A stretch of DNA of 64,000 nucleotides, taken from contig OZ245006.1 of NCBI GenBank assembly GCA_965223545.1, positions 4,736,001-4,800,000 of the forward strand, given 5' to 3'. Below are positions 21,143 to 48,483 of this stretch, piece by piece (the stretch's first letter is position 1; each line of letters starts with the position of its first letter). The stretch comes from Planctomycetota bacterium. GTDB taxonomy: Bacteria > Planctomycetota > UBA1135 > UBA2386. A model generated the notes under the pieces. It had not been told where the DNA came from. It did no database searches and saw nothing but the letters and a program-made list of their open reading frames with translations. Both the position numbers and the translations under genes were made by a program.

Positions 21143-21724
21143 GTGCCCGCCCCCGAAGGAGAGATCACCGCGATCCTGAGCCGCATCCGCGAAGGAGATC
21201 GGGATGCGTTCCAGCAGCTGTTTCCCGTGGTCTACAGCGAGCTGCTGAGCATCGCCGCGGGCAAGGTGTCCGGGGAGCAGTTCGGCCACACACTGCAGCG
21301 CACCGCGTTGGTGCACGAGGCCTATCTCCGGCTCAGCCGGTGCAGGCACGGTTGGAACGACCGCACGCACTTCTTTCGCGTCGCCGCGGTGGCGATGCGC
21401 TCGGTGCTGGTCAACCACGCCCGCGATCGCAAGCGGCAGAAGCGGGGTGGCGGCGTGACTCATTTGCCCTGGCACGACGACGTCGCGCGGGTCGAGGCGA
21501 GGACGCTGGACCTATTGGGACTGGACGACGCTCTGCACCGGCTGCACGAGATCGATTCGCGTCAGGTGCAAGTGGTGGAGCTGCGCTTCTTCGCCGGGCT
21601 GACCGTGGACGAGACTGCCGAGGTGCTGGGTGTCTCGGCGCGCACGGTGCAGTCGGATTGGCGATTGGCGCGCGCCTGGCTGTTTCGCGAGCTCAACGGC
21701 GGCTCCTCGACGGAGATCGATTGA
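21143..21724 (+). CDS. ECF sigma factor, Rhodopirellula/Verrucomicrobium (kinase-associated) type
   Basis: GEIT.IL..IREGD..A..QLFP.VY.EL; HTLQRTALVHEAYLRL; AMR.VLV..AR.R...KRGG; VVELRFF.GLT..E.A..L.VS.RTV..DW..ARAWL. Confidence 0.92.
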   Translation: MPAPEGEITAILSRIREGDRDAFQQLFPVVYSELLSIAAGKVSGEQFGHTLQRTALVHEAYLRLSRCRHGWNDRTHFFRVAAVAMRSVLVNHARDRKRQKRGGGVTHLPWHDDVARVEARTLDLLGLDDALHRLHEIDSRQVQVVELRFFAGLTVDETAEVLGVSARTVQSDWRLARAWLFRELNGGSSTEID

Positions 21725-21729
21725 CGGCG

Positions 21730-24700: not shown

Positions 24701-24870
24701 ACGAGGCGCCGCGCGGGTGGCAGGTGGCGCGCGCCCGGCACGAGCTGTCGTACGTGCTGGTCGATCGCGGCGAGGTCGACGAGGGAGAGCAGCTGCGCCG
24801 TGCCGCGGCGGCCGAGCTGACGCGCATCTACGGCGCCGCGCACCGGTGGGGTGCCACCGATCGCCGGTAG
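21730..24870 (+). CDS. Hanks-type Ser/Thr protein kinase with TM helix and TPR-rich sensor
   Basis: LGAGGMGVVY, VALK, HLDLKPSN, DFG, GTPAY.SPEQ, D..SLGV; TM near residue 390; TPR_12-like repeats; 5 bp after the sigma stop. Confidence 0.93.
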   Translation: MDRARWLGIRDLYHRALETPEPDRLAWLRRQAVDERLRREVESLIQADLRAGTFLEPVSLRGLGAAAGAAFPEVLAEGARVGSYEIRGVLGAGGMGVVYLAEQPHPRRLVALKLIRPGLASPRMLRRFEHEAEVLGRLQHAGIGQIFEAGVHLSAGPHGGEEVEQPFCAMEHIEGPALTQYAILNELDLAARARLFVRLCEAVDHAHRRGVLHLDLKPSNILVVDDARYGEPQPKVLDFGVARITDAPDKEVDGGFVGTPAYTSPEQIPPVGVDLDARADVFSLGVVFQQLCCGKLPYEVAGLSPGEIFALRRTTPARRLRALDPRAPADLDAIVSKALSIDRDARYSSARELAEDVQRFLDHQPVLCRVNSSSYLLRKLVARHRLAAGLVALLLLVLVGAVAVIRWQRDEARVARDAAEQVAAVMEGVIVEVDPDRGGSRLMRSMLERSSALLDGRLDQSPVTRARLLAAMGRVHGKFQEFDRAIALYEEAVALTDAAYGRDHSSMATVLAGFGQVLEAAGQDDEAVAHLREALRIRRTQLAPDDPLIAETHAKLGAVYHYSGQADAAIEQLEAACRVARSRFGDQSPEHAEREADLGFSMVMNGRPTEGLEFLQRALVVQRRTAGHEENMLRTMQGVAHGLHATGRTRECEEVLAERAAFAEEFFDVGDPRLAGILHDYGTVLSWRDLVAGIAVLERAVRTRRLAYGDGHPEVALSLQNLAAAVSKSGDHARAVELMEKAVESRRALGELRSLNDALVNLSLNYVRAGRLTDAERTGREALESLQRESPLRPARIATARQNYAQVLIDSGDPAGAEQQLRAALEGYDEGDHARGGVMSLLAGLRLAAGDFGGSVELSDAAIEIYRAGQADPYAFAHVLLGSARARMESGDFDTARAHLEEAQQLAESLDPRGAVVAAVLRARARLEWESDAPQRARALLAEVDQLGVASPAEGSLAQADLLFLAGALARADDPDLALEALQSALRIYEDEAPRGWQVARARHELSYVLVDRGEVDEGEQLRRAAAAELTRIYGAAHRWGATDRR

Positions 24871-25143: not shown

Positions 25144-27921
25144 TCACTGCACCACCGCGCCCGCCTGGCCCCGCAGCTGGCCGTCGGCATCGATCCACGA
25201 GTTGAGCACGATGCCGGTGATCGGGTCGGTGAGGCGCTGGATCAAGGTCGCGCCGAGCGGACCCGCCATCGCCGGATTCTGCGCGCCGGTGCGCAACGCC
25301 GCGCCGCCACCGGGGGCCAACAACACGTGGTTGCTGGAGCCGGTCGACGCGCCGCTGCCGTCGACGATGCGGTCGAGGTTGTAGAACACTCTGGCGGGGT
25401 CCCAGATGGATGCCGGCGCGACGCCATTGCAGCCGGCGCGGTTGACGTTGTTGTCGAGCGGGTTGGTCGGACAGCCGTTCTGATCGAACAGGAACAGACC
25501 GCTGCCGAGTCCGGCGACCATGTGCACCCAGAGCGGCGAGTCGAGCTGGTTGCTCGGGTTTTGGCCGAAGTGCTGGCGCAGCTGGTTGAAGTCGAGGCTG
25601 CTGAAGTCGCCGTTTGCCATCGCGGTGCGGAACGCGTCGTAGGCGGCACCGTGCGTGGCGAGCGCGTTGTCGGTGAGGTGGCACGCGACGCAGTAGCGCG
25701 GGCCCTCGTCGGTGGCAGTCACGCGGCCGCGGATCGAGTGCGCCATCATCGCGTTGTGGCTGAGCGATGGGTGCCCGGTCGCGGGGTTGGCGCCGCCGCC
25801 GTTGCGATCGGAGAACGCCATCGTCCGGCTGCGGTTGCCGTTGAGATCTTCGTAGGTGAAGAACGTCTTGGTGTTGGCGCAGACCTGCTCGATCCGGTTG
25901 CGCGGCCCCACTCCGAGCTGGAAGAACACCGGCGACTGGTAGACGAAGTCCGCCTCGCGCTCGCGGAACACGATGCGCTGGCCGGTGATGTTGCTGAAGT
26001 TGTTGCCGGTGTCGTAGTCGCCCTCGAGGTGGCAGCCCATGCAGGTGTTGGTCCACGCCGAGTGGCACGACGCGCAGCTCATGGTGTCCGCGTGGCTGAA
26101 ACCCGACGCCGCGACGCCGTTTTGCAACGGTCCGATGCCGGTGTTGGGGTCGCCGTCGGCGCGTCCCATCGCGTAGCTGGCGCGCGGGCTGTAGACCGGC
26201 TGGTTGTCGAACGGATCGCGCACGCCACTGTCGACCACGGTGTCGCGGGTTTGCGGCACGAAGTGGCGACGTCCGGTCACACGGCTCGTCAGGTAGAAGT
26301 GGCCGTCGCTCTCGCGCACGACGTGCGGCAGGGGGTTGCCGGCGGTGTCGACCGCGACCTGCGCGGCGGCGCCGGCGTAGGTCGTGCCGGCGACCGTGCT
26401 GGCGTGGCTGTCGACGCTGCCGTGGCAGCTCTCGCAGGCGATCGCCACCGCCTGCTCCATGCGGCTCAGGATGCGGTCGCCGGCTGGGTCGCCGGGAACG
26501 CCGCCGTGCAGGTCGTGGGTCCCGTGGCAGTCGATGCAGCCCATGCCGGCCTCGGCGTGCACGTCCGGCGGCGTGTCGTCCCGGCCGTCACCGTCGTAGT
26601 CCTCGAACGCGATGTACTGATGGTGATTGCGGCCGTTGAAGGTGCGGTTGCCGACGGCCGGATCGAACAGCCGAGTGTCGTCGCGGGTGTTGACGAAGGA
26701 CTGCGGGTTGGCCGGGTACTGCACCCCGTTGCGCAGATCCTGGTTTTGATCGAGTCGAATGCCCCAGTACTGCATCACCGTGCGGTTGGAACCCTGGTGG
26801 CAGCCGGCGCAGGTGTGATCGTCGATGCCCTCGATGCGTTCGCCGTTGGGCAGATCGCGGCGCACGCTGGCGATGCGGTGGGCGCGCACGTGGCTCAGCT
26901 CGGGCGGATCGATGTCGTCCGGGTCCAGCGGCTCGTCCTTGGGCACGTTGGGATCGAGGCTGCGGCTGCGGCCATCCAGGCTGTACGGCATGTGGCACGC
27001 CGTGCAACCCGACGAGCGGAAGTCACCGTAGCGGTTGTTGGCGCCGGCGCTGCCGAGGTGGCAGTCGCCACAGGTGAACGCCACTTGCTCCTGGTAGACG
27101 TGCGCCAGCGGCGAGTCGAGCTGCACCGAGTTGTCGGGGTTGAGGTAGTTGTGCAGCAGCAGCGCGTCGTAGTTCTGATTGCGGAACATGCTGTTCGGCG
27201 CTTCGACACCGTGCACGCTGTGCACCGGATACTCGGCCAGCCGGCCGACGCGGCCGACCTCTGCCGGGGCGCTGGCAAACATGTCGTCCTGCACCGCCCG
27301 GAAGCCGAGATCGGCGGCGGTGTCGTGGTAGAGGCCGCGGTTCTCGGCAACCTGGTTCTCGATGCCTGCGGCGTAGGTGGCGCCGGACAGGACGCCGGCT
27401 TCGGTCGCCAACAGGCTGTGCGCGACGGCGTCCGAGTGCGGAGCGTGGCATTGTCCGCATCCGCGGTTGGCTTGAGTGACGCGCAGATCGCCGGGGTTGA
27501 CGAACTGCAGGTAGTCGAGGGCCGTGTAGGTGACCCCGTTCACCGTGTAGTCCGGGTACTTGTCGACGCCGGTCAGGGTGAGGCGGTTGAAGTAGGCCTC
27601 GCGGTCGGTGCGCCACTGCTCGCGGTCGCCGATCTCGGGCGGCGGCGGCACGTGGCTCTGCGCGCGGTCGGCGCCATTGGGGTTGCCGCCGTGACAGGTG
27701 GTGCACTGCAGCTGCTCCGCGCCGGGGAAGGGATGAGGATCCTCGAGCCCGGGGCCGGCGTAATCGTCGGCCTGCGAGCCGTTGTGGCACTGCATGCATG
27801 ACTGCGCACTGGCGGCAAACTGCACCCGGCCGTCGGTGTCGCCGCAGCCGGTGAGCAGCGCGCCGGCCAGCAGCAGCGCGAGCCGCCCGGCCGGCAAGAG
27901 ACCAGAATCGATGTGCGTCAT
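25144..27921 (-). CDS. 11-heme c-type cytochrome lipoprotein
   Basis: Lipobox LLTGC; 11 CxxCH motifs (CMQCH, CTTCH, CGQCH, CGDCH, CTACH, CAGCH, CIDCH, CESCH, CASCH, CMGCH, CVACH). Confidence 0.9.
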   Translation of the reverse strand: MTHIDSGLLPAGRLALLLAGALLTGCGDTDGRVQFAASAQSCMQCHNGSQADDYAGPGLEDPHPFPGAEQLQCTTCHGGNPNGADRAQSHVPPPPEIGDREQWRTDREAYFNRLTLTGVDKYPDYTVNGVTYTALDYLQFVNPGDLRVTQANRGCGQCHAPHSDAVAHSLLATEAGVLSGATYAAGIENQVAENRGLYHDTAADLGFRAVQDDMFASAPAEVGRVGRLAEYPVHSVHGVEAPNSMFRNQNYDALLLHNYLNPDNSVQLDSPLAHVYQEQVAFTCGDCHLGSAGANNRYGDFRSSGCTACHMPYSLDGRSRSLDPNVPKDEPLDPDDIDPPELSHVRAHRIASVRRDLPNGERIEGIDDHTCAGCHQGSNRTVMQYWGIRLDQNQDLRNGVQYPANPQSFVNTRDDTRLFDPAVGNRTFNGRNHHQYIAFEDYDGDGRDDTPPDVHAEAGMGCIDCHGTHDLHGGVPGDPAGDRILSRMEQAVAIACESCHGSVDSHASTVAGTTYAGAAAQVAVDTAGNPLPHVVRESDGHFYLTSRVTGRRHFVPQTRDTVVDSGVRDPFDNQPVYSPRASYAMGRADGDPNTGIGPLQNGVAASGFSHADTMSCASCHSAWTNTCMGCHLEGDYDTGNNFSNITGQRIVFREREADFVYQSPVFFQLGVGPRNRIEQVCANTKTFFTYEDLNGNRSRTMAFSDRNGGGANPATGHPSLSHNAMMAHSIRGRVTATDEGPRYCVACHLTDNALATHGAAYDAFRTAMANGDFSSLDFNQLRQHFGQNPSNQLDSPLWVHMVAGLGSGLFLFDQNGCPTNPLDNNVNRAGCNGVAPASIWDPARVFYNLDRIVDGSGASTGSSNHVLLAPGGGAALRTGAQNPAMAGPLGATLIQRLTDPITGIVLNSWIDADGQLRGQAGAVVQ

Positions 27922-28050: not shown

Positions 28051-28719
28051 TCAGCGCACCCGAGCATGGCTCCAGCGGGTTTGAGGGTGGCAGCGATCGC
28101 ACCGCTGTACCCAGCCGAGCGGCACGTGCGGTGGGTTCTGCGTCGCGGCCGCGTCCAGCGCGTGGCAGGTCGAGCACTCGTGGTCGATCGGCTGGAAGTT
28201 GCCGACGAACGAGCCCGGGTGGCAGCGGTGGCAGGACACCGCCAGGTGGGCGCCGGTCAGCGGAAAGCGCGTGCGCGCGTGCAGCTCGATCTGCCCGGTG
28301 GGATGCCACGTTTGCTCGCCGTGGCAATCGGTGCAGGTCGGACCGAGATCGCCGGAGTGCACGTCCTCGTGGCATCCGGCGCAGCCGCGCGCGGCGAAGT
28401 CGGCCACCGGTCCGCGGTCGTTGTGACAGCGCAAGCACTGCGCCGTCGCATGCGCGCCGTGCAGCGCCACCCCGGTGTGCGCCTCGTGATCGAAGTCGAA
28501 GTCGTCGACCAGCTGGTGCCACGAATCGCCGACGTGGCACAGCGTGCAATCGCCGGGAAAGGTGTCGTGCGGTAGAACTGGCCCGAGGCCGCTCCACCAT
28601 CGATGCACCGCCGCGTCCGGTGTTCGCTGCACGGCGCAGGCGATGACCGTGTAGGCGATCGCCGCGGCGAGCATCGGCCAGCGCAGTCGGCGTCGAGGCG
28701 AGGGGTGGTTGTTGTGCAT
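28051..28719 (-). CDS. 7-heme c-type cytochrome (possible lipoprotein)
   Basis: Signal peptide ending VIAC; CTLCH, CLRCH, CAGCH, CTDCH, CHRCH, CSTCH, CDRCH; F.L.GAH module shared with the 23-heme protein. Confidence 0.88.
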   Translation of the reverse strand: MHNNHPSPRRRLRWPMLAAAIAYTVIACAVQRTPDAAVHRWWSGLGPVLPHDTFPGDCTLCHVGDSWHQLVDDFDFDHEAHTGVALHGAHATAQCLRCHNDRGPVADFAARGCAGCHEDVHSGDLGPTCTDCHGEQTWHPTGQIELHARTRFPLTGAHLAVSCHRCHPGSFVGNFQPIDHECSTCHALDAAATQNPPHVPLGWVQRCDRCHPQTRWSHARVR

Positions 28720-28730
28720 GGGTGCCTCGC

Positions 28731-30446
28731 TCAGAAGCTCCGGTCGACGTGGATGCCGACCGACCAAGAGGTGTCTTCGTCCCAGAACAAGGCCTGGGCC
28801 GACAGCGACAGCACCGCGCCGGCGGACAGCAAGAACGTGCGCGCGCAGTGCGCGCGGTGCTGGAACAAATCGTCGGCGTCGTCGTCGAAGCCGCGCAGAT
28901 GGTGGTGGGACAGCTCGTACAGCGCCTCCCACGAGCCGTTGTCGTCGTGCACGCCGTAGCGCACGCGGCTGCCGATCACCGACGAGAACTGTCCGGCGTT
29001 GCCGAAGACGGCCAGCTCCAGCCGACCCCGCTCGGACCACACGCCCTGTGCATCCACGCCGGTCTCGATCGCGGCGCCGTCGTCGTCCTCGTCGTCCCAA
29101 CCGCTGATGCTGAGCCGAACGCGACGGCCGGGCGAAGTGACGCGCCAACCGCTGAGCGTCAGCCGGTCATATCGATAGTCGCGCAGCTCGGGCGCGGTCG
29201 GCAGCGGCACGAACTCGACGCGCAGGATCTCGGGAAAGCGAACCCGCCGGTAGGTGGCGTCGATGCCGCTGCCGCTCTGCCAGCGGCGCGTCAGCGAGAC
29301 CAGCGCTTGGCTGATCTCGGGGCCACTCCCCTTGGTGTCGTCGCGGCCGTAGTAGAAGTCGACCCACGCGCTGGCGTGCGCCTGCCAGCCCTCGTCGGGC
29401 AGGTAGCGCGACTTGAGCACGACCAGGTCGCGGTCGGTCTTGCCGTGGTGCAGCGTCTTCTGGTACGCGGCCGCCGCCGTGAATCGCTCGCGCGTGTCCG
29501 CGGCCCATTGGTAGTAGATCGAGGCCTGCAGGTCGGCGAAGGAATCGAACTCGTCGTCGAGCTCGGGCAGGTAGCCGAAGCTGGCGCCGAACCGCTGGCC
29601 GTCGGCGCCGCGGTGGCTCACCTGGGCACCGTCGACGACCCCGAGCTCGGGGAGGTCGTCGTGCAAGAAGCGGCCCACCTGCCAGCGCGTCGGCTGAAAC
29701 CGGGTGCCGCCCCGGGCGTAGCTCAACCGGTGCGCCAGCAGGTCGAGGCCGTCGGTGTCGTCGTGCTCGGTCTTCGCCTCGAGCTCCGCGTCCAGGAACA
29801 GTGCGCCGCCGCGGCCGAACGGGTTCTCGATGTCGAACTCGACACCGGCCCGGGCGAAGCTGTTGTCGAACGAGTCGTAGCTGTTGTGATCGATCGCTCC
29901 CGCGAGAGCGACGCGGCCGCGCATCCGCCGCGGCCGCTCCGCCGGCCGCACCGGTCGCACCTGAGCCAGCAGCGGCATACCGGCCCGCCAGTCTGGGTCG
30001 CGGTTGGTCCAGCGCGGATCGCCGGCCTGCGGTGCATCGGGCGTGTCCGGAGCAGTGGGGGGCGGCGGGCGCGGGGTCGGGTCGTTGCGCGTGGGCGGCT
30101 GCGCCGACGGCGGGGGGGCGAGGCGCGAAGCCGGAATGCGTACCTGGCCGCGAGCCCCGACCGGCACGCGCGCGCCACTCTCGTGCAGCTCGACGATGGC
30201 GCTGCGCTCGGCCAGCTGGATCACCGTGCCGCGCAGCGTCGCACCGTCACGCGGCACGATCGTGATGATGTCGCCGTTCGCCAGCCCGTCGCGCTGGCCG
30301 CGGTCGATGATCACCTGGCCACCGGGTCGCGCCGCGGTGACGCGCAGCGCCAGCTCGTGCAGTGCGCCGGGCTGCTGCGCGCCGAGAACGGGGGCTGCCA
30401 GCGCGAGCAGCAGCAGACCGAGCCAGAGGTGAGCGGTGGGCGTCAT
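28731..30446 (-). CDS. Outer-membrane beta-barrel protein (putative porin of a porin-cytochrome complex)
   Basis: Signal MTPTAHLWLGLLLLALAAPVLGA; IDRG..DGL..GD N-domain, Pro-rich linker, amphipathic strands, C-terminal WSVGIHVDRSF (terminal Phe). Confidence 0.75.
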   Translation of the reverse strand: MTPTAHLWLGLLLLALAAPVLGAQQPGALHELALRVTAARPGGQVIIDRGQRDGLANGDIITIVPRDGATLRGTVIQLAERSAIVELHESGARVPVGARGQVRIPASRLAPPPSAQPPTRNDPTPRPPPPTAPDTPDAPQAGDPRWTNRDPDWRAGMPLLAQVRPVRPAERPRRMRGRVALAGAIDHNSYDSFDNSFARAGVEFDIENPFGRGGALFLDAELEAKTEHDDTDGLDLLAHRLSYARGGTRFQPTRWQVGRFLHDDLPELGVVDGAQVSHRGADGQRFGASFGYLPELDDEFDSFADLQASIYYQWAADTRERFTAAAAYQKTLHHGKTDRDLVVLKSRYLPDEGWQAHASAWVDFYYGRDDTKGSGPEISQALVSLTRRWQSGSGIDATYRRVRFPEILRVEFVPLPTAPELRDYRYDRLTLSGWRVTSPGRRVRLSISGWDDEDDDGAAIETGVDAQGVWSERGRLELAVFGNAGQFSSVIGSRVRYGVHDDNGSWEALYELSHHHLRGFDDDADDLFQHRAHCARTFLLSAGAVLSLSAQALFWDEDTSWSVGIHVDRSF

Positions 30447-32557
30447 GGTTGGCGGCGCCGCCGGCGGCGCAGTGGGTCGTAGTGCTCGCGGTGGCAGTCG
30501 GTGCACTGGTGCGCGATCGGTCGGTAGCGGATCACGCCGTCGTTGCCTTGTCCGTCGGCGAGGTGGCAGGCGGCGCAGTCCAGCGCGCGGTGCTGCGCGC
30601 CGAGCGCGAACGCGGCATCGCGTTCGTGGTCGAAGCGCGACGCCGCAAAGGCGGTGGCCGGGTCGTGGCAGCGCTGACAGTCGGTGCGACCGGCGGCGTC
30701 GTCGAACTGGCCGCCGTGCGGATCGGTGTGGCAGTCCGCACACGCCGTGCCCCGCGCGCGGTGCCAGGTGCGGCCGTGGGCGTCGGCCGGCACCATCGGC
30801 GCATGGCAGGTCGAGCACGCGGCCTGTGCGTGCGCACCGGTCAGGGCAAAGCCGGTCCACTGGCCGTGGTCGAAGCCATGTGGAAGCGCGCGGAACGAGC
30901 TGTCGGCGTGACACCGCGCGCAGTCCGCCCTGCCCTCGACGGTCGCCGGCAGGCCGGGTCCGTCGAAGCCGCCGCGGTGCGGGTCTCGATGGCAGCTGTG
31001 ACACCCCTCGAACGCGCCGAAGTGATCGGCGACCCGACCGAGCGTGCGGCCGCTGGCGTCCGGGGTCGCGCTGCGCGGGTGGCAGCTCTCGCAACCGGCC
31101 TGTTGGTGGGCACCGCCGACCGCGAAGCCGGTCCAGGCGCCGTGGTCGAAGCCTTCCCGCAGCGCGGGGTGCGCGAAGCCGTGCGTGGTGTGACAGTGCG
31201 CGCAGCGCCCGTGCGGCGGCCGGTCGATCGCCGCGTCGAACCGGTCGAACTGGCCGCCGTGCGCGTCGCGATGGCAGTCGGCGCAGCGCGTCGAGGTGCC
31301 GGCAAAGCGCCGCACGCCGTCGCCGTCCGCAGTGTGGCAGTCGGCGCAGGCGAGGTCCTGGTGGGCGCCGTCGAGCGGCAGCGCTGCGCCGGCGTGTCGT
31401 TCGCGGTCGAAGGCGGGCGGTGCAAAGTGGTCGCGGTCGTGGCACGCCCGGCAGTGCCGCCCGGCGTCGGCACCGGTCTGGAAGCGGCTGCCGGCGAACT
31501 GGCCGGCGTGCGGGTCCGCGTGGCAGCGGTGGCAGTCGTCAGCGGTCCGGCCCGGGTGCCGGGTGGCGAAGTCGGCGGCGTCGGGTGCATGGCACCGGGC
31601 GCAGTCGACGTCTTGGTGCGGTCCCGCCAGGGCAAAGCCGGTGGCCGCGTGTTGCGCCGGTGTGAGCCGCTCCGCCTCCCGCCAGTCGTGGTGCTCGTGC
31701 CGGTGGCAGTCGGCGCAGGCGTTGCCGGCCGGTCCGCCGTGCTGTGCAGCGGCGGCCTCGGCGAACGGCTGTGTGTGCGGTGAGGCGTGGCAGTCGTCGC
31801 AGCGGCGGGGCGTGCCGACGTTCTCGGCGCGTTCGAGCGCGTGTGCGCTGCCGGCCGCGTGGCAGGTGCGGCAGTCGAGGGCGGCGTGGGCGCCCGCCAA
31901 CCGCAGATGCCGGTCGTGGCCGGCCGCGCGGTGCTCGGTGAACGCGGCCTGCGTGTGGCAGGCCGCGCAGTCGCGGTGCATGCGGCCTTGGTGCGGGTCT
32001 TCGTGGCAGCTGGCGCAGGTCGCGTCGAGGCCGGTGTATCGCTGCGCGCCGGCCGGCAGCACGGCGGTGTCGGCGTGCGCGTGGCAGGCCGCGCACTCGA
32101 GCTCCTGGTGCGCGCCGCCCATGGCGAAGCCGACGCTGTGGTGGTCGAAGCCTTCGCGGCCGTCGAAGCCCGCGGCAACGAAGCTCTGCCGGTTGACGAG
32201 GGCGAAGGACGCGCCGTGGTGCTCGCTGTGGCAGCGCGCGCACGCCGCCGAGGCGGCCTGGCTCGAGCGGCCGTGCAGCCCCTCGCCGTCGACTCGCTGC
32301 GCTTCGATGTCGTCGTGGCACTGTAGGCAGGACTGCGTCATGTCGGAGAACCAGCCGCCGTGGCACTGCGCGCAGCTGCGGTCGCCGGCCAGGTCGGGGT
32401 GGGCGCCGTGTACGGTCGACAGCGTGCCGGGGGCGACGCGGTCGAGATCGCCGATCACCAGCGCGCCGACCGCGACCGCCGAGAGCACCGCGATGGCGAC
32501 GCCGGCGTGGCGCCGCAACCAGGGGTCGCTCGGCTGGCGGGGTCGTGCGCGGGTCAT
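30443..32557 (-). CDS. 23-heme c-type cytochrome with N-terminal membrane anchor/signal
   Basis: 23 CxxCH in 704 aa, arranged in tri-heme repeats FDH...GF.L.GAH...CxxCH...CxxCH.DPH.G.F...CxxCH. Confidence 0.92.
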   Translation of the reverse strand: MTRARPRQPSDPWLRRHAGVAIAVLSAVAVGALVIGDLDRVAPGTLSTVHGAHPDLAGDRSCAQCHGGWFSDMTQSCLQCHDDIEAQRVDGEGLHGRSSQAASAACARCHSEHHGASFALVNRQSFVAAGFDGREGFDHHSVGFAMGGAHQELECAACHAHADTAVLPAGAQRYTGLDATCASCHEDPHQGRMHRDCAACHTQAAFTEHRAAGHDRHLRLAGAHAALDCRTCHAAGSAHALERAENVGTPRRCDDCHASPHTQPFAEAAAAQHGGPAGNACADCHRHEHHDWREAERLTPAQHAATGFALAGPHQDVDCARCHAPDAADFATRHPGRTADDCHRCHADPHAGQFAGSRFQTGADAGRHCRACHDRDHFAPPAFDRERHAGAALPLDGAHQDLACADCHTADGDGVRRFAGTSTRCADCHRDAHGGQFDRFDAAIDRPPHGRCAHCHTTHGFAHPALREGFDHGAWTGFAVGGAHQQAGCESCHPRSATPDASGRTLGRVADHFGAFEGCHSCHRDPHRGGFDGPGLPATVEGRADCARCHADSSFRALPHGFDHGQWTGFALTGAHAQAACSTCHAPMVPADAHGRTWHRARGTACADCHTDPHGGQFDDAAGRTDCQRCHDPATAFAASRFDHERDAAFALGAQHRALDCAACHLADGQGNDGVIRYRPIAHQCTDCHREHYDPLRRRRRRQP

Positions 32558-34797
32558 CGCTCCGCTCCTGCGCCGAGCGGCGCCGCGGCGTCACCGGCGC
32601 CGTAGGCGAGCGCGTAGAACACGTGCACGGCGAGCAGCAGCAGCATCAGCACCGCGACCCAGCGGTGTAGCCAGCGCCAGGTCGACAGCAGCGCGCGCAC
32701 GTCCTCGAAGTGCGCTGCGGTCACTGCGAGGTGGTGCGCGCGGCGGGTCAGGTCGATGGTGCGCGCGATCTCGGGTGGGGCGACGCCGTGCTGGGTTCCC
32801 TCGTGTCGCAGTCCGCTGATCGTGCGGCGCAGCGAGCGCTGCGCGGTGAGCAGACCGAATGCCCGGCCGGCGAAGCCCGCCCGCCAGCGGTGGCGTTCGA
32901 CCGATTCCTCGACCGCCCGCCGCGCCGACCGGCGCAGGTCGACGGCGGCCGTGCTCCAGTCTTCGCTGCTGCTCTCGAGCTCCGCCTTGACCTCGTCCAG
33001 CCGCAGCTCGCGGCCGTTGGCGGCGCGCGGCAACCATGCGTAGAAGTAGCGGCCGATCGCGCCCGAGACGACAAGTGCGAGCAAGGCCCACAGCGCGTGG
33101 CCCCCGGGTGTGTCGCGCGGGGCCAGGGCGGCGTGCAGGACCGCGCACAGCAGCGCCAGCACGCCGGTGGCGACGTGGCTGGTCATCCACAAGCGCAGGC
33201 TGCCGAGGCGCAGGTGGAAGCGCTCGGTGCGCCGCGCCAGATAGGCCAGGTTGGTCGCGATCAGTGCGACCGCGGCGATGCCGAACGCGAGGCCCGCGCC
33301 GCGACCAGGCCGCAGCCACTCGTGAAGGTCGTGGGTCGGCCGTTCGGCGGTGGCCAAGCCATAGTAGTCGACGTGCCACAGCACCCACGCCGTGGCCAGC
33401 GCCAGCAGTGCTGCGGCCGTGATCGCCGCGTTGCGGATGCCGGCGCCGCGCGGTTGCGCCGCGGCGGGCGGCGGCCGCAGCTCCGGATTGCACGAGACCC
33501 CGGCGGCGGCGAGCAGCGCTGCCGGCGGCGTGCCGCCGAGCATCGCGAACACGCGGTGCACCGCCAGCCTGCCCCGCCGGATGCCCTCCGCCGTGCGCCG
33601 TTCGAGCTCGACGTGGTCCTCGGTGATGCCGCGGATCTCGGTGCTCATCAACAGCCGCAGCCGGCCGCGCTGCGCGAGGTCGTGCAGGCGCTGCTCGTTG
33701 GCGCGGCGCATGCGGTAGAAGTGCGGTTTGCGGTAGGCCAGGTGCACACGGTTGCCGGGTTGCTCGGCCAGCGCGATCGCGGTCTCCGCTGCGCTGTCGC
33801 CGCCACCGACCACCAGCAGCGCGCGGTCGCGCAAGGACTGCGCGTCGAGCAGGCCATAGGCCACCGACGAAGCGTCCTCGCCGGGCACGTCGAGCCGCGC
33901 CGGCGTGCCGCGGCGGCCGATCGCCAGGCAGACCGCGCGGGCGCGCACTTCGGCGGAGTTGCCGCGCACCCGCAGGCTGCCGTCGGCGTCGCGTTCGACC
34001 GCCTCGACGACCGCGTCGCAGCGCAGCGGCAGCTCGTGGCTGTCGACCAGCTCGCTCCACAGCGCGACCAGCTCCTCCTTCTCGTAGCTGCGCTGTGGCA
34101 GCCGCCCGTGCAGCGGCAGCGCCACCGACTCGGTGAGCACCAGCTTTTGGCGCGGGTACTTCGCCACCGTGCCGCCGGCGGCGCTCTCCTGCTCGAGCCA
34201 GACGAAGGACAGCCCGTGCGCACGGGCCTGCAGCGCGCACGCCAGCCCGGCCGGCCCCGCGCCGACGATGCACAGGTCGCGCAACCCGGCTTCGGCATTC
34301 CGTGCGCGGCGTGCGGCGACCCGGTCCGCCACCGCCGTGCCGTGCTCCACCGCGGTCTTGATCAGCGCGTGTGCGGTGACCTCACCGGCGAGGAACACGC
34401 CCGGCGCGGTTACCGACTCGAGCTCGTCGGTCAGCACCGGCACATCGTCGCGCTCGGCGAGATCCGCGATCGTCACGGTGATCGCGTCCACCGGACAGAC
34501 GCGTGCGCAGGCCGCCACACCGACGCACCGCGCGCCGTGGATCACCGCCGCCTGCCCGTGCACCATGCCGAGCACGTCGTCTTCGGGGCAGACCTCGACA
34601 CACTTGCCGCAGCCGAGGCAGCGGCTCAGATCGATGTGCGGCTGCTGCAGCCGCGCGGCCCGGTCCCCGGCGCGCGCCGCCGTCTCGCGCGCCCGCACCT
34701 GCCGCTGCATGCGCAGAAGCTCCCCCCGCCGCGACGCGGTCGCGAACAGGGAAAGCCCGAGGATGGTGATCGCGGTGAGGACGAAACCCCAGCTCAT
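32554..34797 (-). CDS. Fe-S ferredoxin / FAD-NAD(P)H oxidoreductase / ferric-reductase-like diheme-b membrane fusion
   Basis: CLGCGKCVEVCP and CVGVAACARVCP; IVGAGPAG (FAD); VVGGGDSA...YRK (NADPH); TM helices with two His pairs 14 residues apart. Confidence 0.88.
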   Translation of the reverse strand: MSWGFVLTAITILGLSLFATASRRGELLRMQRQVRARETAARAGDRAARLQQPHIDLSRCLGCGKCVEVCPEDDVLGMVHGQAAVIHGARCVGVAACARVCPVDAITVTIADLAERDDVPVLTDELESVTAPGVFLAGEVTAHALIKTAVEHGTAVADRVAARRARNAEAGLRDLCIVGAGPAGLACALQARAHGLSFVWLEQESAAGGTVAKYPRQKLVLTESVALPLHGRLPQRSYEKEELVALWSELVDSHELPLRCDAVVEAVERDADGSLRVRGNSAEVRARAVCLAIGRRGTPARLDVPGEDASSVAYGLLDAQSLRDRALLVVGGGDSAAETAIALAEQPGNRVHLAYRKPHFYRMRRANEQRLHDLAQRGRLRLLMSTEIRGITEDHVELERRTAEGIRRGRLAVHRVFAMLGGTPPAALLAAAGVSCNPELRPPPAAAQPRGAGIRNAAITAAALLALATAWVLWHVDYYGLATAERPTHDLHEWLRPGRGAGLAFGIAAVALIATNLAYLARRTERFHLRLGSLRLWMTSHVATGVLALLCAVLHAALAPRDTPGGHALWALLALVVSGAIGRYFYAWLPRAANGRELRLDEVKAELESSSEDWSTAAVDLRRSARRAVEESVERHRWRAGFAGRAFGLLTAQRSLRRTISGLRHEGTQHGVAPPEIARTIDLTRRAHHLAVTAAHFEDVRALLSTWRWLHRWVAVLMLLLLAVHVFYALAYGAGDAAAPLGAGAER

Positions 34798-34917: not shown

Positions 34918-36972
34918 TCAGTGTCCGATGCGCAGGTCCAACGCGTTCGTCAAGGCGATCCCGATCGAGGCCGCCGGATCGGGTACCGCGGCCTGCACGT
35001 GTACGTGCTGCGCCAGCAGTCTCGGCAGCAGCGGGATCGGGGCGTCGAGAGTGGTGATCCCCAGCGGGTCGGTCGTCGCGGCAACGACTGCTGCAATTCG
35101 CGTCAGGTCGATCCACGCCGTGCAGCCGCCCCCGAGGCTGGTCACTGCCGATGCGGGAGAGAAGAAGGCGACCGCGGGGGCCGTCGCCGGTGCGTCGACG
35201 AGATCGAGCTTGAACGAACGAGAGCCGAGGGCGGGGGTGCTCCAGCCGCGAAGGTCGGGCCGGGTCGTTGCGCCACAGCCATCTCCGGAGCGCGTGACCG
35301 AAGCCGGCGAGCCGGACAAGATCCACGATTGGGTGGCGCCGTCGGCCAGCAACAGGGTGGTGCGGCCGACGTGATCGAAGACCATCGGGCCCGCGAGCCG
35401 AGCCGTCGCGCGCACGCCGGTCGCCACTTGCTGCCAAGACGACCCGTCCCAGGCGAAGGCAGCACCGCCGAACGCATGCGCGACGACGCGGGCTGCATCG
35501 GGGTCGTAGGCCGCGGCGACGGGACCAGCGCCGGAAGTGACGGCGGCACCGAGACGGCTCCACGCAGTCCCATCCCACTCCCAGGTGCCGCTCGCACCGA
35601 TGAACACGACGCGCTGCCGGCGCGTGTCGGTCACCATGGTTCCGACCGAGTCGGGAGGGAGCGAGCTCGGCTGGATGCGCGTCCAAGTCGTTCCGTCGTA
35701 GCTCCACATGTCCGCGCCACCGAGCACGATGCGTTGCAGCACGGGATCCCAGGCCATCGGCGCGTGATATCGCGCACTCGGCACGGTCGTCGGATTCATC
35801 TGCTGCCAGCGCGATCCGTCCCATTCCCACGTCGCGGCGAACGCGATGCCCGCGGTGAATCCGCCGAACAACACGGCCCGGCGCCGGCGCGGATCGTACG
35901 CCAGGCTGTAGCCAAACTGGGGCATCGGCTGCGGGGACGTCGCCACGCGCTGCCAATTCGCCCCGTCGTACTCCCAGGTCTCGCCGTCGTGAACCGTGAC
36001 TGCTCGGCGGCGGTGGACGTCGTAGCAGAGGCCTCGGGACTGGTTGAACAGGCCGGGGGGATGGGGGTTCGCCCGCGTTGAGGACCATGCCGCGCCGTCC
36101 CAGCTCCAGACGGTCCCGTCGGCTTCGAAGACGGACACGCGTCCGGTCGCGGGCACGAAGGCCAGCGGCTCGCCGGCGGACGGGCCGACGGTCGGGCCGC
36201 CCCGCCAGGTGCTGCCGTCCCATTCCCAGGTCTCGCCGTCGGTGAGCAGGACCATGCGGGCACGGGTCTCGTCGAACGCCATGGTCGCCTGGCCTCCAGG
36301 CGGACCGCTGGCGCTGCGCAGGATCCACGTGGTGCCGTCCCACTCCCAAGTGTCGCGCAGTGGGTTCGTGGGCCCACTGCCGAAGCCGCCGAACAGCACC
36401 GTCACTCCCCGGGTCGTGTCGTAGCCCATGGCGTGGCTGAACCGTGCCGCCGGCGTCGCGGCAGTGAGTCGTTGGGCCCAACGAGCCCCGTCCCACTCCC
36501 AGGTCTCGGCCAGCGAGCCGAACTCCCGGCCGCCGAACAACACCGCGCGCCCGCGTCCTCGGTCGTACGCCATGCCGGCGTCGGCGCCGCTCGGTTGGGG
36601 GAGCGCGGTGTCGAGCTGCCACTGTGCACCGTTCCACCGCCAGGTGGCGCGCGGATACACCCCGGAGACGGAGTCCCATCCACCGGAGACGAGCACGGTG
36701 CCTCGGGTGTCGTCGTAGACCGCGGCTGGACTCGACAGGCCGTGCGGGGTGTTGAACGCATTCACCCCCATGGGGGTCCAGCCGCGTCCGTCCGACTCGA
36801 AGGTGTCCGTCGGGGTGATGCCGACGGCTCTGCCGCGGGCGCGGTCATAGGCAAGGGCACCGAGGCTCTGTGGATTCTTCAGAATCCACGTTCGGGACTG
36901 GGCCTCCACGGTTTGTGTGATGGGGGCGCAGAGAATGACGGCGGTGGCCGAGCAGCGCGCGATCGAGTGCAT
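34918..36972 (-). CDS. Secreted Kelch-like (TWEWDG-repeat) protein with conserved C-terminal domain
   Basis: GGAGG RBS; signal peptide; YD..R...VLFGG...TWEWDG repeats; same C-terminal domain as 9028..11157. Confidence 0.85.
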   Translation of the reverse strand: MHSIARCSATAVILCAPITQTVEAQSRTWILKNPQSLGALAYDRARGRAVGITPTDTFESDGRGWTPMGVNAFNTPHGLSSPAAVYDDTRGTVLVSGGWDSVSGVYPRATWRWNGAQWQLDTALPQPSGADAGMAYDRGRGRAVLFGGREFGSLAETWEWDGARWAQRLTAATPAARFSHAMGYDTTRGVTVLFGGFGSGPTNPLRDTWEWDGTTWILRSASGPPGGQATMAFDETRARMVLLTDGETWEWDGSTWRGGPTVGPSAGEPLAFVPATGRVSVFEADGTVWSWDGAAWSSTRANPHPPGLFNQSRGLCYDVHRRRAVTVHDGETWEYDGANWQRVATSPQPMPQFGYSLAYDPRRRRAVLFGGFTAGIAFAATWEWDGSRWQQMNPTTVPSARYHAPMAWDPVLQRIVLGGADMWSYDGTTWTRIQPSSLPPDSVGTMVTDTRRQRVVFIGASGTWEWDGTAWSRLGAAVTSGAGPVAAAYDPDAARVVAHAFGGAAFAWDGSSWQQVATGVRATARLAGPMVFDHVGRTTLLLADGATQSWILSGSPASVTRSGDGCGATTRPDLRGWSTPALGSRSFKLDLVDAPATAPAVAFFSPASAVTSLGGGCTAWIDLTRIAAVVAATTDPLGITTLDAPIPLLPRLLAQHVHVQAAVPDPAASIGIALTNALDLRIGH

Positions 36973-38142: not shown

Positions 38143-40286
38143 CTACCCGCCAATCACGGCAGCGACGGCGTCGGAGAGGACCATCCCGGCCGGGTTGCGC
38201 CGTGGATCGGGCACCACGGCCTGCTGGTAGTAGCGACCGCCGATGAGGGCGGGCGTGACCGGAATCGAGTACGCGAACGCAGCCGACGTGCCCGTGCCGG
38301 CGACCGGAACCGCTGCGTCCGGGCTCACCCTCAGCAGGCAGCCAGTCAGTCCCAAACGGCTCAGGTTCATCGGCAAGGGGGCGGCGCCGAACGTCGTGTT
38401 GCTGGCACCGAACAGTACTGTCGCCGCACCTTGCGGCAGCCCCCGCGCGACGACGTTCATCACCGTGCCCACTCGCGGAGGTAGGGTGGCGGTCAGGTGC
38501 GGAACGCCGAGGCTCCCCAGGCACAAGGGACTTGCGAACGCGACGTACGCGCCCTGCGCAACCACGCCGACGTCGTTGGAAGCCACCCGGCTGTAGACCA
38601 TCCCGGGTTCGAGGTCGGGTGCGTTGAACTGAAACGTAGAGCTCCAAGAGACCGCCGAGCCGTCGCTCCGCCGCGCCACGCTCCCGGTGGTCGATTGCTC
38701 GTTGGCGACCTCGACGTAGGTCACCCCGGCGGGCAACGGCGGCACCGACCCGAAGAAACTCGACCCCCAGGCAGCGACGGTTCCGTCACTCCGTCGCTGC
38801 CATCGCTGCGCAGCGCGGCCGAGTGCTCGCCACCAGCGGCTGCCTCGACGTAGCGCAAGCCGGCCGGCAGCGCGGGCACGTTGGTCTGACCGGAGAGATT
38901 CTTGCCCCAAGCGACGAGTGAGCCGTCGCTGCGCAGCCCGAGCGAGTGCTGGGATCCCGCACTGACCTGAGTGTAGGTCAAACCGGTGGGCGGGGAAGGC
39001 ACGGAGGTCTGTCCCCAGAAGTTCCATCCCCAACCCACCGCGGTCCCGTCGCTGCGCAACGCGAGGGCAAACGACTCGCCCGCCTCGATGGCGGCATAGG
39101 TCGTGCCGGCCCGTGGCGGTGGCACGCTGGTCTGGCCCAGGCTGTCGTCTCCCCAAGCTGCGATCTCGCCGTCGCTGCGCAGCGCGAGCCAATAGCCGAA
39201 TCCCGCCGCCACGTCGGTGTAGGTGAGACCCGAGGGCAGAGCCGGCGCGTTGAGCTGACCCAGTCGATTGGAGCCCCACGACACGACCGAGTCGTCGCTG
39301 CGGCGTGCGACGGTGTGGGACTGGCCCACTGCCCCGCCGGCGTCGACCGCGACGTAGGTCAACCCCGCTGGCAAGGGTGGGACCGCGCCGCGGACGTTCC
39401 CCCACGCCGTGATCGTTCCGTCGCTGCGCAGCCCGACCGAATGATCGTAGCCCGCCGAAACCTGCACGTAGGTCGACCCCGGCGGAAGCGCCGGCACGTT
39501 GGTCTGGCCGGCACTGTTGTCGCCCCAGCCAATGGCCGAGCCGTCGCTGCGCCGTGCCAGCGCGTGCAGTGGCCCGGCGTCGATCGCAACGTAGGTCAGC
39601 CCCGGCGGAAGCGCGGGCACTGCGGCGACGGCCCCCCAGGCGACCACCGCGCCGTCACTGCGACGAGCGGCCGCGAAGCGACCGCCGGCAGCGACCTCGA
39701 CGTAGGCCAGCCCCGCAGGTGCAACGGGGATGTTGAGCTGGCCGAAACGATTGCTACCCCAACCGATCAGCGCACCGTCGCTGCGGCGCGCGATCGCGAA
39801 GTGCTCGCCCACCGTGCCGCCGGCCGCGACTTCGACGTAGCTCAGACCCGGCGGCAGGGCGGGAACGTTGAGCTGGCCGGAGTTGTTGTTGCCCCAACCG
39901 ACGACCGTGCCATCGCTGCGCCGCGCGATCGTGAACTCCTCCCCCGCTTCGATCTCGACGTAATGGATGCCCGGTGGCAAGGGCGGCCGGACATGCCACT
40001 TGGTGGCGCCCCACGAGACCACCGAGCCATCGCTACGGCGCGCGACCGTGTGGTACCCACCGGCAGAGACTTCGACGAACCTCTCCGCATGCCAAGCGCT
40101 GTTGAAGAACATGCCGCCCGGGCCCCAGCCCACGACGTCCTGCGCGCCTGCCGCGCTCGCGCACGACGCGATCAGCGCGGCGATGCACAGCGGGCCGGCA
40201 GGGAATCCGGTGCGTGCCTTCCGGTCGGGCGGGGGAACGCTGTCGGCGGAGATGCGCTGGCCGGAGGGTGGAGTCGCGCGGTGCAT
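38143..40286 (-). pseudogene. RCC1-repeat secreted protein with conserved C-terminal domain, frameshifted near 38795
   Basis: RSDG..WG.N..GQ..VP repeats in ORF 38721..40286 continue in a different frame (RRSDGTVAAWG... to the C-terminal domain, stop at 38143). Either a real lesion or an assembly error. Confidence 0.75.
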
Positions 40287-48122: not shown

Positions 48123-48483
48123 CGTCGTGGTGGGCAAGAAACTGCGGGGCTCGTGTCGATTCCGGAGACCGCGCTGAACGCGGGTTGGCGCGATCCGTTC
48201 CCGTCGCCAGCAGAGTTTGACGCGGTCGCCGCGCGCGCGGCATGCTCGAAGGGCCGAAACCGCGGCCGCAGCGCATGGTCTGTCCGCTTGGCTGTCCTAT
48301 CGGCGCGCGCCCGGGCGCGACCCCACCGCTTGCCGGCGGTGGGGAGGAATCCCCGTGGGTCGACGTCGGTGCTCCGTATACTCCCTGCCGCTTGCCTTGA
48401 CTCCGATCCGCCGCTCAAAGCCCTTGCCGCCCGCTGTCGAGCCCGCGCCCAGCGGCCCTGGCGAGGGGCCGGCGGAGGGCGGG

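Follow-up and report, generated by a model that had tools for sequence, protein, structure and literature searches.

A gene on contig OZ245006.1 of a Planctomycetota bacterium joins a ferredoxin, a flavoprotein and a membrane domain in one chain at the head of a cytochrome operon, which raises the question of where its electrons come from and where they go. To our knowledge, the characterised porin-cytochrome conduits of Gram-negative bacteria (Shewanella, Geobacter) draw electrons from the quinone pool. We read the present system, with a probability of about 60%, as an outward electron valve that would run from NAD(P)H to the cell surface, bypassing quinones, without energy conservation.

The flavoprotein gene and its product

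All coordinates are positions in the window, the 64,000-nt stretch of the contig that was analysed (Table 1). The 747-aa frame is uninterrupted in translation, and its ATG at 34797 agrees with the consensus start of its homologs, MSW. A GTG lies in frame 24 nt 5' of this ATG. When 8000 candidates were scored, 1590 homologs were found at E<=1e-3; counts over 120 homologs refer to the best 120 of these 1590, which share 52-57% identity with the flavoprotein. No longer fused form was found among 8000 candidates of 1309-3735 aa, which is weak evidence, and a promoter scan at the operon found nothing. The structure model of the protein had pLDDT 86.4 and pTM 0.79.

Hydropathy and the model gave five C-terminal TM helices in addition to the N-terminal anchor. 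The anchor has a hydropathy peak of 2.48 across the family and is followed by a basic stretch (K+R in aa 22-40 averages 6.6). Positive-inside counts place the flavin and Fe-S domains on the cytoplasmic side, as the sequence-only reading of this locus required.

Table 1. Features of the flavoprotein gene and of the genes that follow it.
Feature	Position in window	Strand	Remarks
Flavoprotein gene, 747 aa	32554..34797	-	anchor helix, ferredoxin, permuted TrxR-fold flavodomain, predicted dihaem-b membrane domain
N-terminal membrane anchor, aa 1-23	34729..34797	-	predicted N-out/C-in
Dicluster ferredoxin, aa 53-110	34468..34641	-	Fer4_7 E 2e-9
Permuted C-terminal FAD-binding segment of TrxR fold, aa 126-163	34309..34422	-	strand, AGE, helix
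TrxR/YpdA-fold core, aa 172-439	33481..34284	-	Pyr_redox_3 E 4e-36
Five-helix dihaem-b-type membrane domain, aa 454-737	32587..33438	-	W537-H541-H555, S578-G-x-x-G, W707-H711-H725, cytoplasmic helical insert
704-aa cytochrome c, 23 CxxCH	30443..32557	-	N-terminal hydrophobic anchor; predicted periplasmic wire and direct partner
571-aa predicted outer-membrane beta-barrel	28731..30446	-	signal-like N-terminus, C-terminal Phe
222-aa 7-haem cytochrome c	28051..28719	-	predicted lipoprotein; 53/55 loci
925-aa 11-haem cytochrome c	25144..27921	-	predicted lipoprotein, accessory member; 34/47 loci

The flavodomain is a circularly permuted TrxR fold

PGVFLAGE (aa 132) precedes the FAD motif GAGPAG (aa 179), an order that had been taken from the sequence as a sign of circular permutation. 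Structure alignment, profiles and domain order in the family all agreed. The model of aa 170-439 aligned only to residues 1-272 of Bdr/YpdA (7a76_D; Z 23.4, rmsd 3.5, 261/324 aligned), and a profile of aa 116-165 gave weak matches to the C-terminal part of TrxR 3cty (271-308, E 0.008) and of the glutamate synthase small chain (E 2e-4). Among 143 family cores the segment lay before the core in 129, after it in none, and was undetected in 14; in a Sphingobium relative the same segment lies after the core (287-324, E 2.6e-4). The flavodomain is thus a circularly permuted TrxR/YpdA fold. Literature searches found no description of such a permutation or of the fusion.

The core carries an NADP-type GGGDSA (aa 331) and YRK (aa 355), with R356 and R362 invariant. 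These motifs had been read as pointing to NADPH; they are present, and use of NADPH over NADH is probable. No CxxC follows the ferredoxin in any of 120 homologs, and 141/143 family cores lack one, in agreement with the earlier observation. A thioredoxin reductase identity was rejected on this absence and on TIGR01292 (64 vs cut-off 343 bits). Membership in Bdr/YpdA was likewise rejected (TIGR04018, 113 vs curated cut-off 340 bits), yet Bdr/YpdA is the closest fold. The flavodomain shares with TrxR-type ferredoxin/flavodoxin-NADP+ reductases and Bdr/YpdA (7a76, 3ab1, 6gar) a two-domain TrxR fold with an NADP-type motif and no CxxC; such CxxC-less reductases are known (PMC10294844) and were among its PDB matches. 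Because Bdr/YpdA, a disulfide reductase, also lacks CxxC, this absence is no proof of ferredoxin reduction. Unlike these enzymes, the flavoprotein is permuted, has its own fused ferredoxin and is anchored in the membrane at both ends. TrxR-type FNRs are homodimers with a C-terminal FAD-stacking residue (PMC10294844); that extension is not at its usual place here.

The ferredoxin has a four-Cys and a three-Cys site

The motifs CLGCGKC (aa 60) and CVGVAAC (aa 91) give one site of C60/C63/C66/C101 and another of C91/C97/C70, in which V94 replaces Cys; the pairing presumably follows the standard fold. All seven Cys are kept in 120/120 homologs. The second-Cys position of the second motif is His in 53, Val in 36, Ile in 28, Thr in 2 and Tyr in 1 of the 120, and Cys in 0/148 wider loci, with His in most relatives; the missing Cys noted from the sequence is confirmed. 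The three-Cys cluster is plausibly [3Fe-4S]. His80, a possible substitute ligand, occurs in 46/47 non-His variants and also in 63/101 His variants, a distribution confounded by ancestry.

TrxR-type FNRs are reversible, which counts for an inward conduit in which a donor outside the cell would supply the electrons for reducing ferredoxin and NAD(P)+. The first PCC3 clusters came to light in iron oxidisers, and He 2017 (PMC5566968) draws the system as inward. Inward transfer would run uphill against the membrane potential and would need a donor well below NADPH, and the operon has no coupling subunit; moreover, with this type of motif a three-Cys cluster is usually more positive than [4Fe-4S] (PMC6237146). 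We regard the inward direction as improbable.

The membrane domain resembles PCC3's inner-membrane protein

The sequence-only reading had noted two His pairs on TM helices. H541, H555, H711 and H725 proved invariant in 120/120 homologs, and two W-x3-H-x13-H motifs lie on TM3 and TM5 in 137/137 distinct complete domains. His spacing alone is weak evidence, because 2427/20000 shuffles of the domain gave two H-x13-H; two W-x3-H-x13-H appeared in 25/100000. TM4 carries S578-G-A-I-G ([ST]GxxG[RK] in 132/137 domains; first residue T in 111/120 fused forms), and a helical insert of ~110 residues separates TM4 from TM5. Stand-alone homologs have 281-300 aa. These features (five TM helices, ~300 aa, two W-x3-H-x13-H and SGxxG) are those given for the protein that PCC3 and PCC4 have in the inner membrane. 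A profile retrieved 2644 representatives at E<=0.001; a word-indexed search for stand-alone domains yielded for the most part pieces of fused genes. Fold searches with the domain were dominated by the helical insert. Foldseek with the domain alone gave no match at E<=0.001. A second search brought up helical bundles of a generic kind, with Z 11.8 at best; Dcytb, which came 50th (Z 7.9, rmsd 2.8, 129 aligned), was not counted as evidence.

The protein had been proposed as a NOX analogue with a TrxR-type dehydrogenase. A path from NADPH to FAD and on to a stacked pair of b haems makes sense, and the bis-His motifs on TM3 and TM5 of the NOX criteria of Hajjar 2017 are present. The protein is not a NOX, judged by its motifs, its number of helices and the order of its domains: there are five TM helices vs six, the dehydrogenase is N-terminal vs C-terminal, and the NOX FAD and NADPH motifs are absent. 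Ferric_reduct (PF01794) scored 24.1 vs a cut-off of 28 bits, with weak matches (E<=0.1) in 53/56 members (best 1.5e-5). Together with the haem ligand pattern shared with FRD/NOX, these matches speak for an enzyme in which O2 or a metal chelate takes electrons straight from the outer haem. Such an enzyme is quite unlikely given the absent motifs and the multihaem cytochrome, whose gene comes next in every locus with room for it and which the complex model described below sets over the periplasmic face.

The operon and the modelled contact with its first cytochrome

The gene of the 23-haem cytochrome follows that of the flavoprotein in 78/78 loci with room, with a -4 overlap in 57/78; here its start overlaps the flavoprotein stop (ATGA). 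The flavoprotein gene is translationally coupled to a multihaem/porin operon, and it heads a conserved Planctomycetota operon with a 23-haem cytochrome, a predicted beta-barrel, and predicted 7- and 11-haem lipoproteins. The barrel gene is present in 59/61 loci, with no barrel within 10 kb in 2/61. Its homologs end in an aromatic residue in 93/107 cases, and its beta alternation was exceeded by 27/2000 shuffles; no Pfam or PDB family was matched by sequence or profile. A lipobox pattern occurs in 50/60 homologs of the 7-haem cytochrome and 28/34 of the 11-haem cytochrome, whose gene is absent within 10 kb in 13/47 loci. The 11-haem cytochrome gave a weak ExtM match under the cut-off; neither it nor the 23-haem cytochrome had sequence relatives in the PDB.

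A sensor or regulator, or Bdr-like reduction of a small cytoplasmic substrate, would entail little outward electron flux. The cNMP-binding and FHA-like domains of relatives, and Bdr as the closest fold, point that way; the operon encodes 41 c haems and no signalling domain, which makes this the least probable explanation that we considered.

The model of the membrane domain with residues 10-140 of the 23-haem cytochrome scored 0.64, and the best of three controls, not stated to be membrane proteins, scored 0.00. Runs shared at least 90% of contacts, and the pLDDT of the partner was no lower than 80. Of solved pairs, 116/157 reached the mark for this score, as did 2/215 mismatched pairs, a calibration only roughly valid with the alignments used. 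The modelled interface sets TM5 and the periplasmic loops against the anchor helix and the first and third haem motifs of the cytochrome. The modelling thus supports binding of the cytochrome by the membrane domain.

Split forms and distant relatives

The fusion of flavoprotein and membrane domain arose once. In split forms the flavoprotein gene is within the cluster in 28/32 fetched loci (the other 4 are cut off by a contig edge), and it stays there even when relocated behind the barrel or divergent. A split system is present in the cultured Bacteroidota Emticicia oligotrophica, where its cytochromes carry 23 and 40 haems and a ccsA gene accompanies them. Range outside Planctomycetota is given by single records. 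In Sphingobium a distant membrane-domain homolog lies directly behind an unpermuted TrxR-cNMP-Fer4 gene, and in Methylophaga, Alteromonas and loci L150 and L154 it lies directly behind a plant-type FNR-[2Fe-2S] gene; the dehydrogenase therefore looks interchangeable. Since 3/7 distant loci (L152, L155, L156) have no flavin/Fe-S gene upstream (L153 counted neither way), the membrane domain can occur with no dehydrogenase next to it.

These relatives bear on a reading of the domain as a quinone-reactive cytochrome b, with the flavoprotein as an NAD(P)H:quinone branch and a wire exchanging mainly with the quinone pool. The distant homologs without adjacent flavoprotein and weak matches (E<=0.1) to Ni_hydr_CYTB (39/56) and Cytochrome_B (10/56) are consistent with it. 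It also matches the model of He 2017 (PMC5566968), whose accessible text proposes the PCC3/PCC4 motif as quinone-active and describes PCC3 with four genes and neither flavoprotein nor other dehydrogenase. That published role is itself a proposal. Flavin/Fe-S genes in three builds recur next to the membrane domain or fused to it, and a haem pair fed by quinone alone would have no need of them. We consider the quinone route unlikely, though less so than the other alternatives.

Proposed electron path

In the preferred reading, outward transfer from NAD(P)H, the flavoprotein would be the inner-membrane start of a trans-envelope conduit. Cytoplasmic NADPH would reduce the FAD of the permuted CxxC-less domain, which would work in the manner of a TrxR-type ferredoxin-NADP+ reductase. 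One at a time, electrons would then cross the [4Fe-4S] and the three-Cys, probably [3Fe-4S], clusters to the cytoplasm-side b haem (H541/H711) and the periplasm-side b haem (H555/H725), and pass directly to the membrane-anchored 23-haem cytochrome. From there the barrel may lead them on to the lipoprotein cytochromes and to an acceptor that lies on the cell surface or outside it. We infer the cofactors, cluster order, electron direction, lack of a quinone site and final acceptor; the fold, topology and contact with the cytochrome are modelled. The 23-haem cytochrome is a likelier acceptor than O2 because of the coupling of the flavoprotein gene to the multihaem/porin operon. Because electrons that move from the negative side to the positive one use up proton-motive force and do not build it, reductant delivery or redox overflow is likelier than respiration. 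The host genome has four haem-copper oxidase-family genes; its respiration is therefore independent of the flavoprotein route.

Comparison with known systems

In NOX/FRE, SpNOX and MsrQ-Fre, too, electrons from NAD(P)H cross the inner membrane by way of a flavin and a stacked pair of b haems borne on TM3 and TM5, and MsrQ also passes electrons to a periplasmic protein (PMC5676040, PMC3591440). The present protein differs in its five TM helices, N-terminal TrxR-fold dehydrogenase, Fe-S relay, long TM4-TM5 insert and lack of NOX motifs.

By membrane-domain motifs and cluster make-up, the system is like PCC3 as described in the accessible parts of PMC5566968 and PMC9900912. Each has a long multihaem cytochrome in the periplasm (with 20/23/26 haems in the present system vs 21/24/27), a second multihaem cytochrome and a predicted porin, locations here being predictions. 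The second cytochrome has 7 haems vs 10-35 in PCC3 (10-24 in split relatives, 40 in Emticicia), and an 11-haem lipoprotein is extra here. The membrane domain here is fused or linked to the permuted flavoprotein-ferredoxin, whereas PCC3 is described without one; PCC3 is modelled, as a prediction, inward and quinone-linked, whereas the present system is read as outward. The same membrane motif occurs in PCC4 and in porin-less MHC + IMP clusters (He 2017, Supplementary Table 6). As far as that source goes, PCC4 has 4-, 5- and 10-haem periplasmic cytochromes and no extracellular one; identity with PCC4 was rejected on the counts of 23, 7 and 11 here. In PCC4 and the porin-less clusters the membrane gene adjoins a redox gene, either Fe-S (pfam13247) or unnamed and of 412-805 aa, and the Sphingobium and Methylophaga/Alteromonas loci fit these size patterns in the accessible text of He 2017, where the redox partner is not named an NAD(P)H flavoprotein and feeding from the cytoplasm is not proposed. 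EET1-4 of a 2026 peat preprint (8-13 haems; NAD, flavin and inner membrane unmentioned in its accessible part) appear to be other systems.

Tentatively, and at somewhat less than even odds, the PCC3-type inner-membrane protein may represent a widespread class of quinone-independent gate, in which swappable cytoplasmic NAD(P)H-flavin-Fe-S modules load a dihaem-b domain that docks a cytochrome anchor helix. In Planctomycetota and Bacteroidota it would form a complete wire from cytoplasmic NADPH to the exterior in oxygen-respiring bacteria, and the wire would serve some other end than conserving energy. A lesser, structural novelty is that the TrxR fold occurs here in a naturally circularly permuted form. 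The naturally occurring union with an NAD(P)H-flavin-ferredoxin module offers a concrete, testable alternative to the guessed quinone role of the PCC3 membrane protein, and Emticicia oligotrophica DSM 17448 is a cultured host for testing. A direct wire from NADPH to the surface, if true, would be useful for bioelectrochemical engineering, and the reading of such clusters in metagenomes would shift from iron-oxidising or respiratory to outward and reductive.

Conservation of the fused gene

Translation of the gene gave an open 747-aa frame in which all motifs named in the sequence-only reading lay at the expected positions. The best 120 of 1590 homologs were full length with 52-57% identity. 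Positions invariant across these 120 comprised all seven ferredoxin Cys, AGE, both glycine motifs (FAD and NADP), R356 and R362, and four His (541, 555, 711, and 725). The membrane domain is His-rich, and a plain H-x13-H occurred twice by chance in 2427 of 20000 shuffles of it; W-x3-H-x13-H did so in only 25 of 100000. Two W-x3-H-x13-H motifs were present in 137/137 distinct complete membrane domains. The gene is real and conserved, and it is not NOX. The idea of a NOX analogue stands in regard to working logic, which resembles that of NOX and MsrQ-Fre; however, the motifs place the protein with the membrane proteins of porin-cytochrome clusters PCC3 and PCC4. A direct NOX/FRE-like enzyme is very unlikely.

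Locations of the gene and of other features
Feature	Coordinates	Strand	Remarks
747-aa fused gene	window 32554-34797	-	
Ser/Thr kinase-TPR gene	window 21340-24870	+	flanks operon
Kelch-like repeat gene	window 34918-36870	-	flanks operon
Repeat protein, presumably RCC1-like by appearance	window 38143-40286	-	seems to run on in second frame near 38800, possibly frameshift
2085-aa ORF	window 41880-48137	-	no Pfam match
822-aa paralog	host contig G000:C1:499044-501512 (L160:9045-11513)	+	same permuted TrxR module
Multihaem cluster	G000:C1:6212296-6223464		10, 5, 13, 10 motifs
18-haem ORF	G000:C1:203860-205608		
Emticicia flavoprotein	L161:11842-13164		Ser for second Cys, first ferredoxin motif
Alteromonas macleodii plasmid genes	L220:7974-14693		FNR-[2Fe-2S], membrane protein, 7-haem cytochrome

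Circular permutation

The AlphaFold model (pLDDT 86.4) matched Bdr/YpdA, TrxR, and TrxR-type FNRs over residues 170-439 only, which aligned to residues 1-272 of a 324-residue chain. The C-terminal strand-AGE-helix element, absent from the aligned core, sits at 126-163; a profile of this segment weakly matched TrxR 3cty and glutamate synthase small chain, in the C-terminal part of each. In agreement with the permutation originally proposed, 129 of 143 family members had the AGE segment ahead of the core and none had it behind; in the other 14 it was not detected. In a Sphingobium relative the segment is in normal order. The permutation is wider than the 747-aa fusion, because the permuted module also occurs, with no N-terminal ferredoxin, in the host-genome paralog and in a Pseudoalteromonas protein. 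The paralog has the module joined to another type of membrane domain, with Fer4_5, and ends in a ferredoxin; the ORF upstream may, judging by a motif, be vanadium haloperoxidase-like. The Pseudoalteromonas homolog of the paralog is plasmid-borne, among glycosyltransferase and DUF2064 genes.

Cofactors and topology

The flavodomain contains no CxxC, as had been noted from the sequence; TrxR-type ferredoxin/flavodoxin reductases and Bdr likewise lack it (PMC10294844). At the second-Cys position of the second Fe-S motif, 148 loci (some near-duplicates) had His (101), Val (24), Ile (17), Thr (5), or Ala (1). Cys, whose absence the earlier reading had noted, was found in 0/148. A 3Fe-4S cluster at this three-Cys site is plausible by analogy, since ferredoxins with such motifs bind [3Fe-4S], with potentials of -340 to +230 mV (PMC6237146); His ligation is an alternative in relatives. 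Ser replaced the second Cys of the first motif in Emticicia and 9/148 other loci, where both clusters may be three-Cys.

By family hydropathy, the N-terminus has one anchor and the C-terminal part five helices. Counts of K+R were high behind the anchor (6.6) and, among the loops, in TM2-3 (4.4), against low values for TM3-4 (0.8) and the C-terminus (0.5); for TM1-2 they were ambiguous (3.3 K+R, 2.8 D+E). This distribution predicts that the ferredoxin, flavodomain, and TM4-5 insert are cytoplasmic and that TM3 and TM5 are parallel, giving a putative inner haem (H541/H711) and outer haem (H555/H725), an arrangement described for NOX2 (PMC3591440).

Operon and relatives

The gene heads a minus-strand run encoding a 23-haem cytochrome, a predicted beta-barrel, and 7-haem and 11-haem lipoproteins; ATGA overlaps join it to the 23-haem gene and the latter to the barrel gene. 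A GTDB scan confirmed 248 relatives, of which 80 were kept (72 titled Planctomycetota, 8 "bacterium" only). Where the contig had room, the downstream partners were the 23-haem cytochrome (78/78 loci), barrel (59/61), 7-haem (53/55), and 11-haem (34/47) proteins. Sensing or small-molecule reduction is the least probable reading. Operon gaps of about 1-1.6 kb occurred in some loci (L020, L022, L030; L006, L009, L032, L061), and L053 has a broken flavoprotein frame.

The membrane-domain profile matched 65/401 sampled Planctomycetota genomes. In the second-tier loci (32/36 fetched), the membrane protein stands alone, clustered with cytochromes of 17-26 and 7-24 haems and, in most cases, a homolog of the barrel. 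The permuted ferredoxin-flavoprotein was encoded separately in 28/32 stretches, the remaining 4 ending at contig edges; its gene stays in the cluster even if behind the barrel or divergent. Metagenome loci, low-GC ones included, held both fused and split forms. Five stand-alone proteins (L137, L139, L142, L147, L149) have putative long extensions at the N-terminus, rich in Pro and acidic, that span about 140 to 570 residues; in L181 the 23-haem-type gene is spread over two frames. The cultured Bacteroidota strain Emticicia oligotrophica DSM 17448 carries a split system on a plasmid: ccsA, membrane protein, permuted flavoprotein, cytochromes with 23 and 40 haems, and barrel homolog. EMTOL_RS21090 and RS21095 are its membrane protein-flavoprotein pair.

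A tree was built from 96 flavodomain cores, which sampled roughly one in three of the first 80 loci and all of the remaining ones, minus duplicates and one broken gene. Fused forms (45) grouped as a single clade (100/97, with the bootstrap not fully settled) nested within the split ones (48).

Other dehydrogenases beside the membrane domain

The dehydrogenase partner appears interchangeable. In Sphingobium, the gene immediately upstream of a distant membrane-domain homolog encodes an unpermuted TrxR-2xcNMP-ferredoxin; in that place, plasmids of Methylophaga and Alteromonas and loci L150 and L154 have a plant-type FNR-[2Fe-2S] gene, and L151 a cNMP-ferredoxin gene. A multihaem cytochrome came next in each distant locus with such a dehydrogenase. 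An adjacent dehydrogenase is not universal, because three of seven weak planctomycete matches fetched (L152, L155, L156) had no flavin/Fe-S gene upstream, and a fourth, L153, was ambiguous. On the Alteromonas macleodii plasmids, [NiFe]-hydrogenase genes follow immediately after the FNR-[2Fe-2S], membrane protein, and 7-haem cytochrome genes.

Predicted contact and electron route

A complex of the membrane domain and the 23-haem cytochrome (residues 10-140) was modelled. The score was 0.64 (best of 3 controls, 0.00), with at least 90% of contacts agreeing between runs and partner pLDDT of at least 80; the calibration mark, reached by 116/157 solved and 2/215 mismatched pairs, is only roughly valid with the alignments used here. 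The modelled interface comprised residues 483-492, 561-567, and 713-736 of the full-length protein and, on the cytochrome, the anchor (26-44) and haem motifs one and three (62-66, 105-127). Structure and PDB sequence searches found no solved relatives of either partner. The model supports, as a prediction, binding of the cytochrome by the membrane domain.

He et al. 2017 (PMC5566968) define the PCC3/PCC4 membrane protein by motifs that the 747-aa protein has, list Planctomycetes among PCC4 carriers, place unnamed "other redox proteins" beside it, and model it as quinone-active. Later PCC3 papers (PMC9900912, 10.1101/2025.02.27.639646) count four genes and describe their function as untested. 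We consider a quinone-linked role, which would follow the modelling of He et al., unlikely. The cytoplasmic NAD(P)H module found here is absent from the PCC3/PCC4 descriptions consulted. No account of the fusion, the permutation, or feeding by NAD(P)H appeared in the literature searched, which lacked most subscription journals. The protein appears to be of the PCC3/PCC4 membrane-protein kind, itself unproven, to which an NAD(P)H module on the cytoplasmic side has been added.

In the route we favor (probability about 0.6), electrons would pass from NADPH through FAD and the ferredoxin clusters to the inner and outer haems, the 23-haem wire, and then the barrel and lipoprotein cytochromes. Membrane potential would favor outward flow, at the expense of proton-motive force; inward flow through the same chain is distinctly improbable. 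The host genome has four COX1-family genes. Because it would cost proton-motive force, the outward NADPH-to-wire route is read as reductant export or overflow; candidate acceptors include chelates of ferric iron or other metals, humic material, and redox chemistry at the surface.
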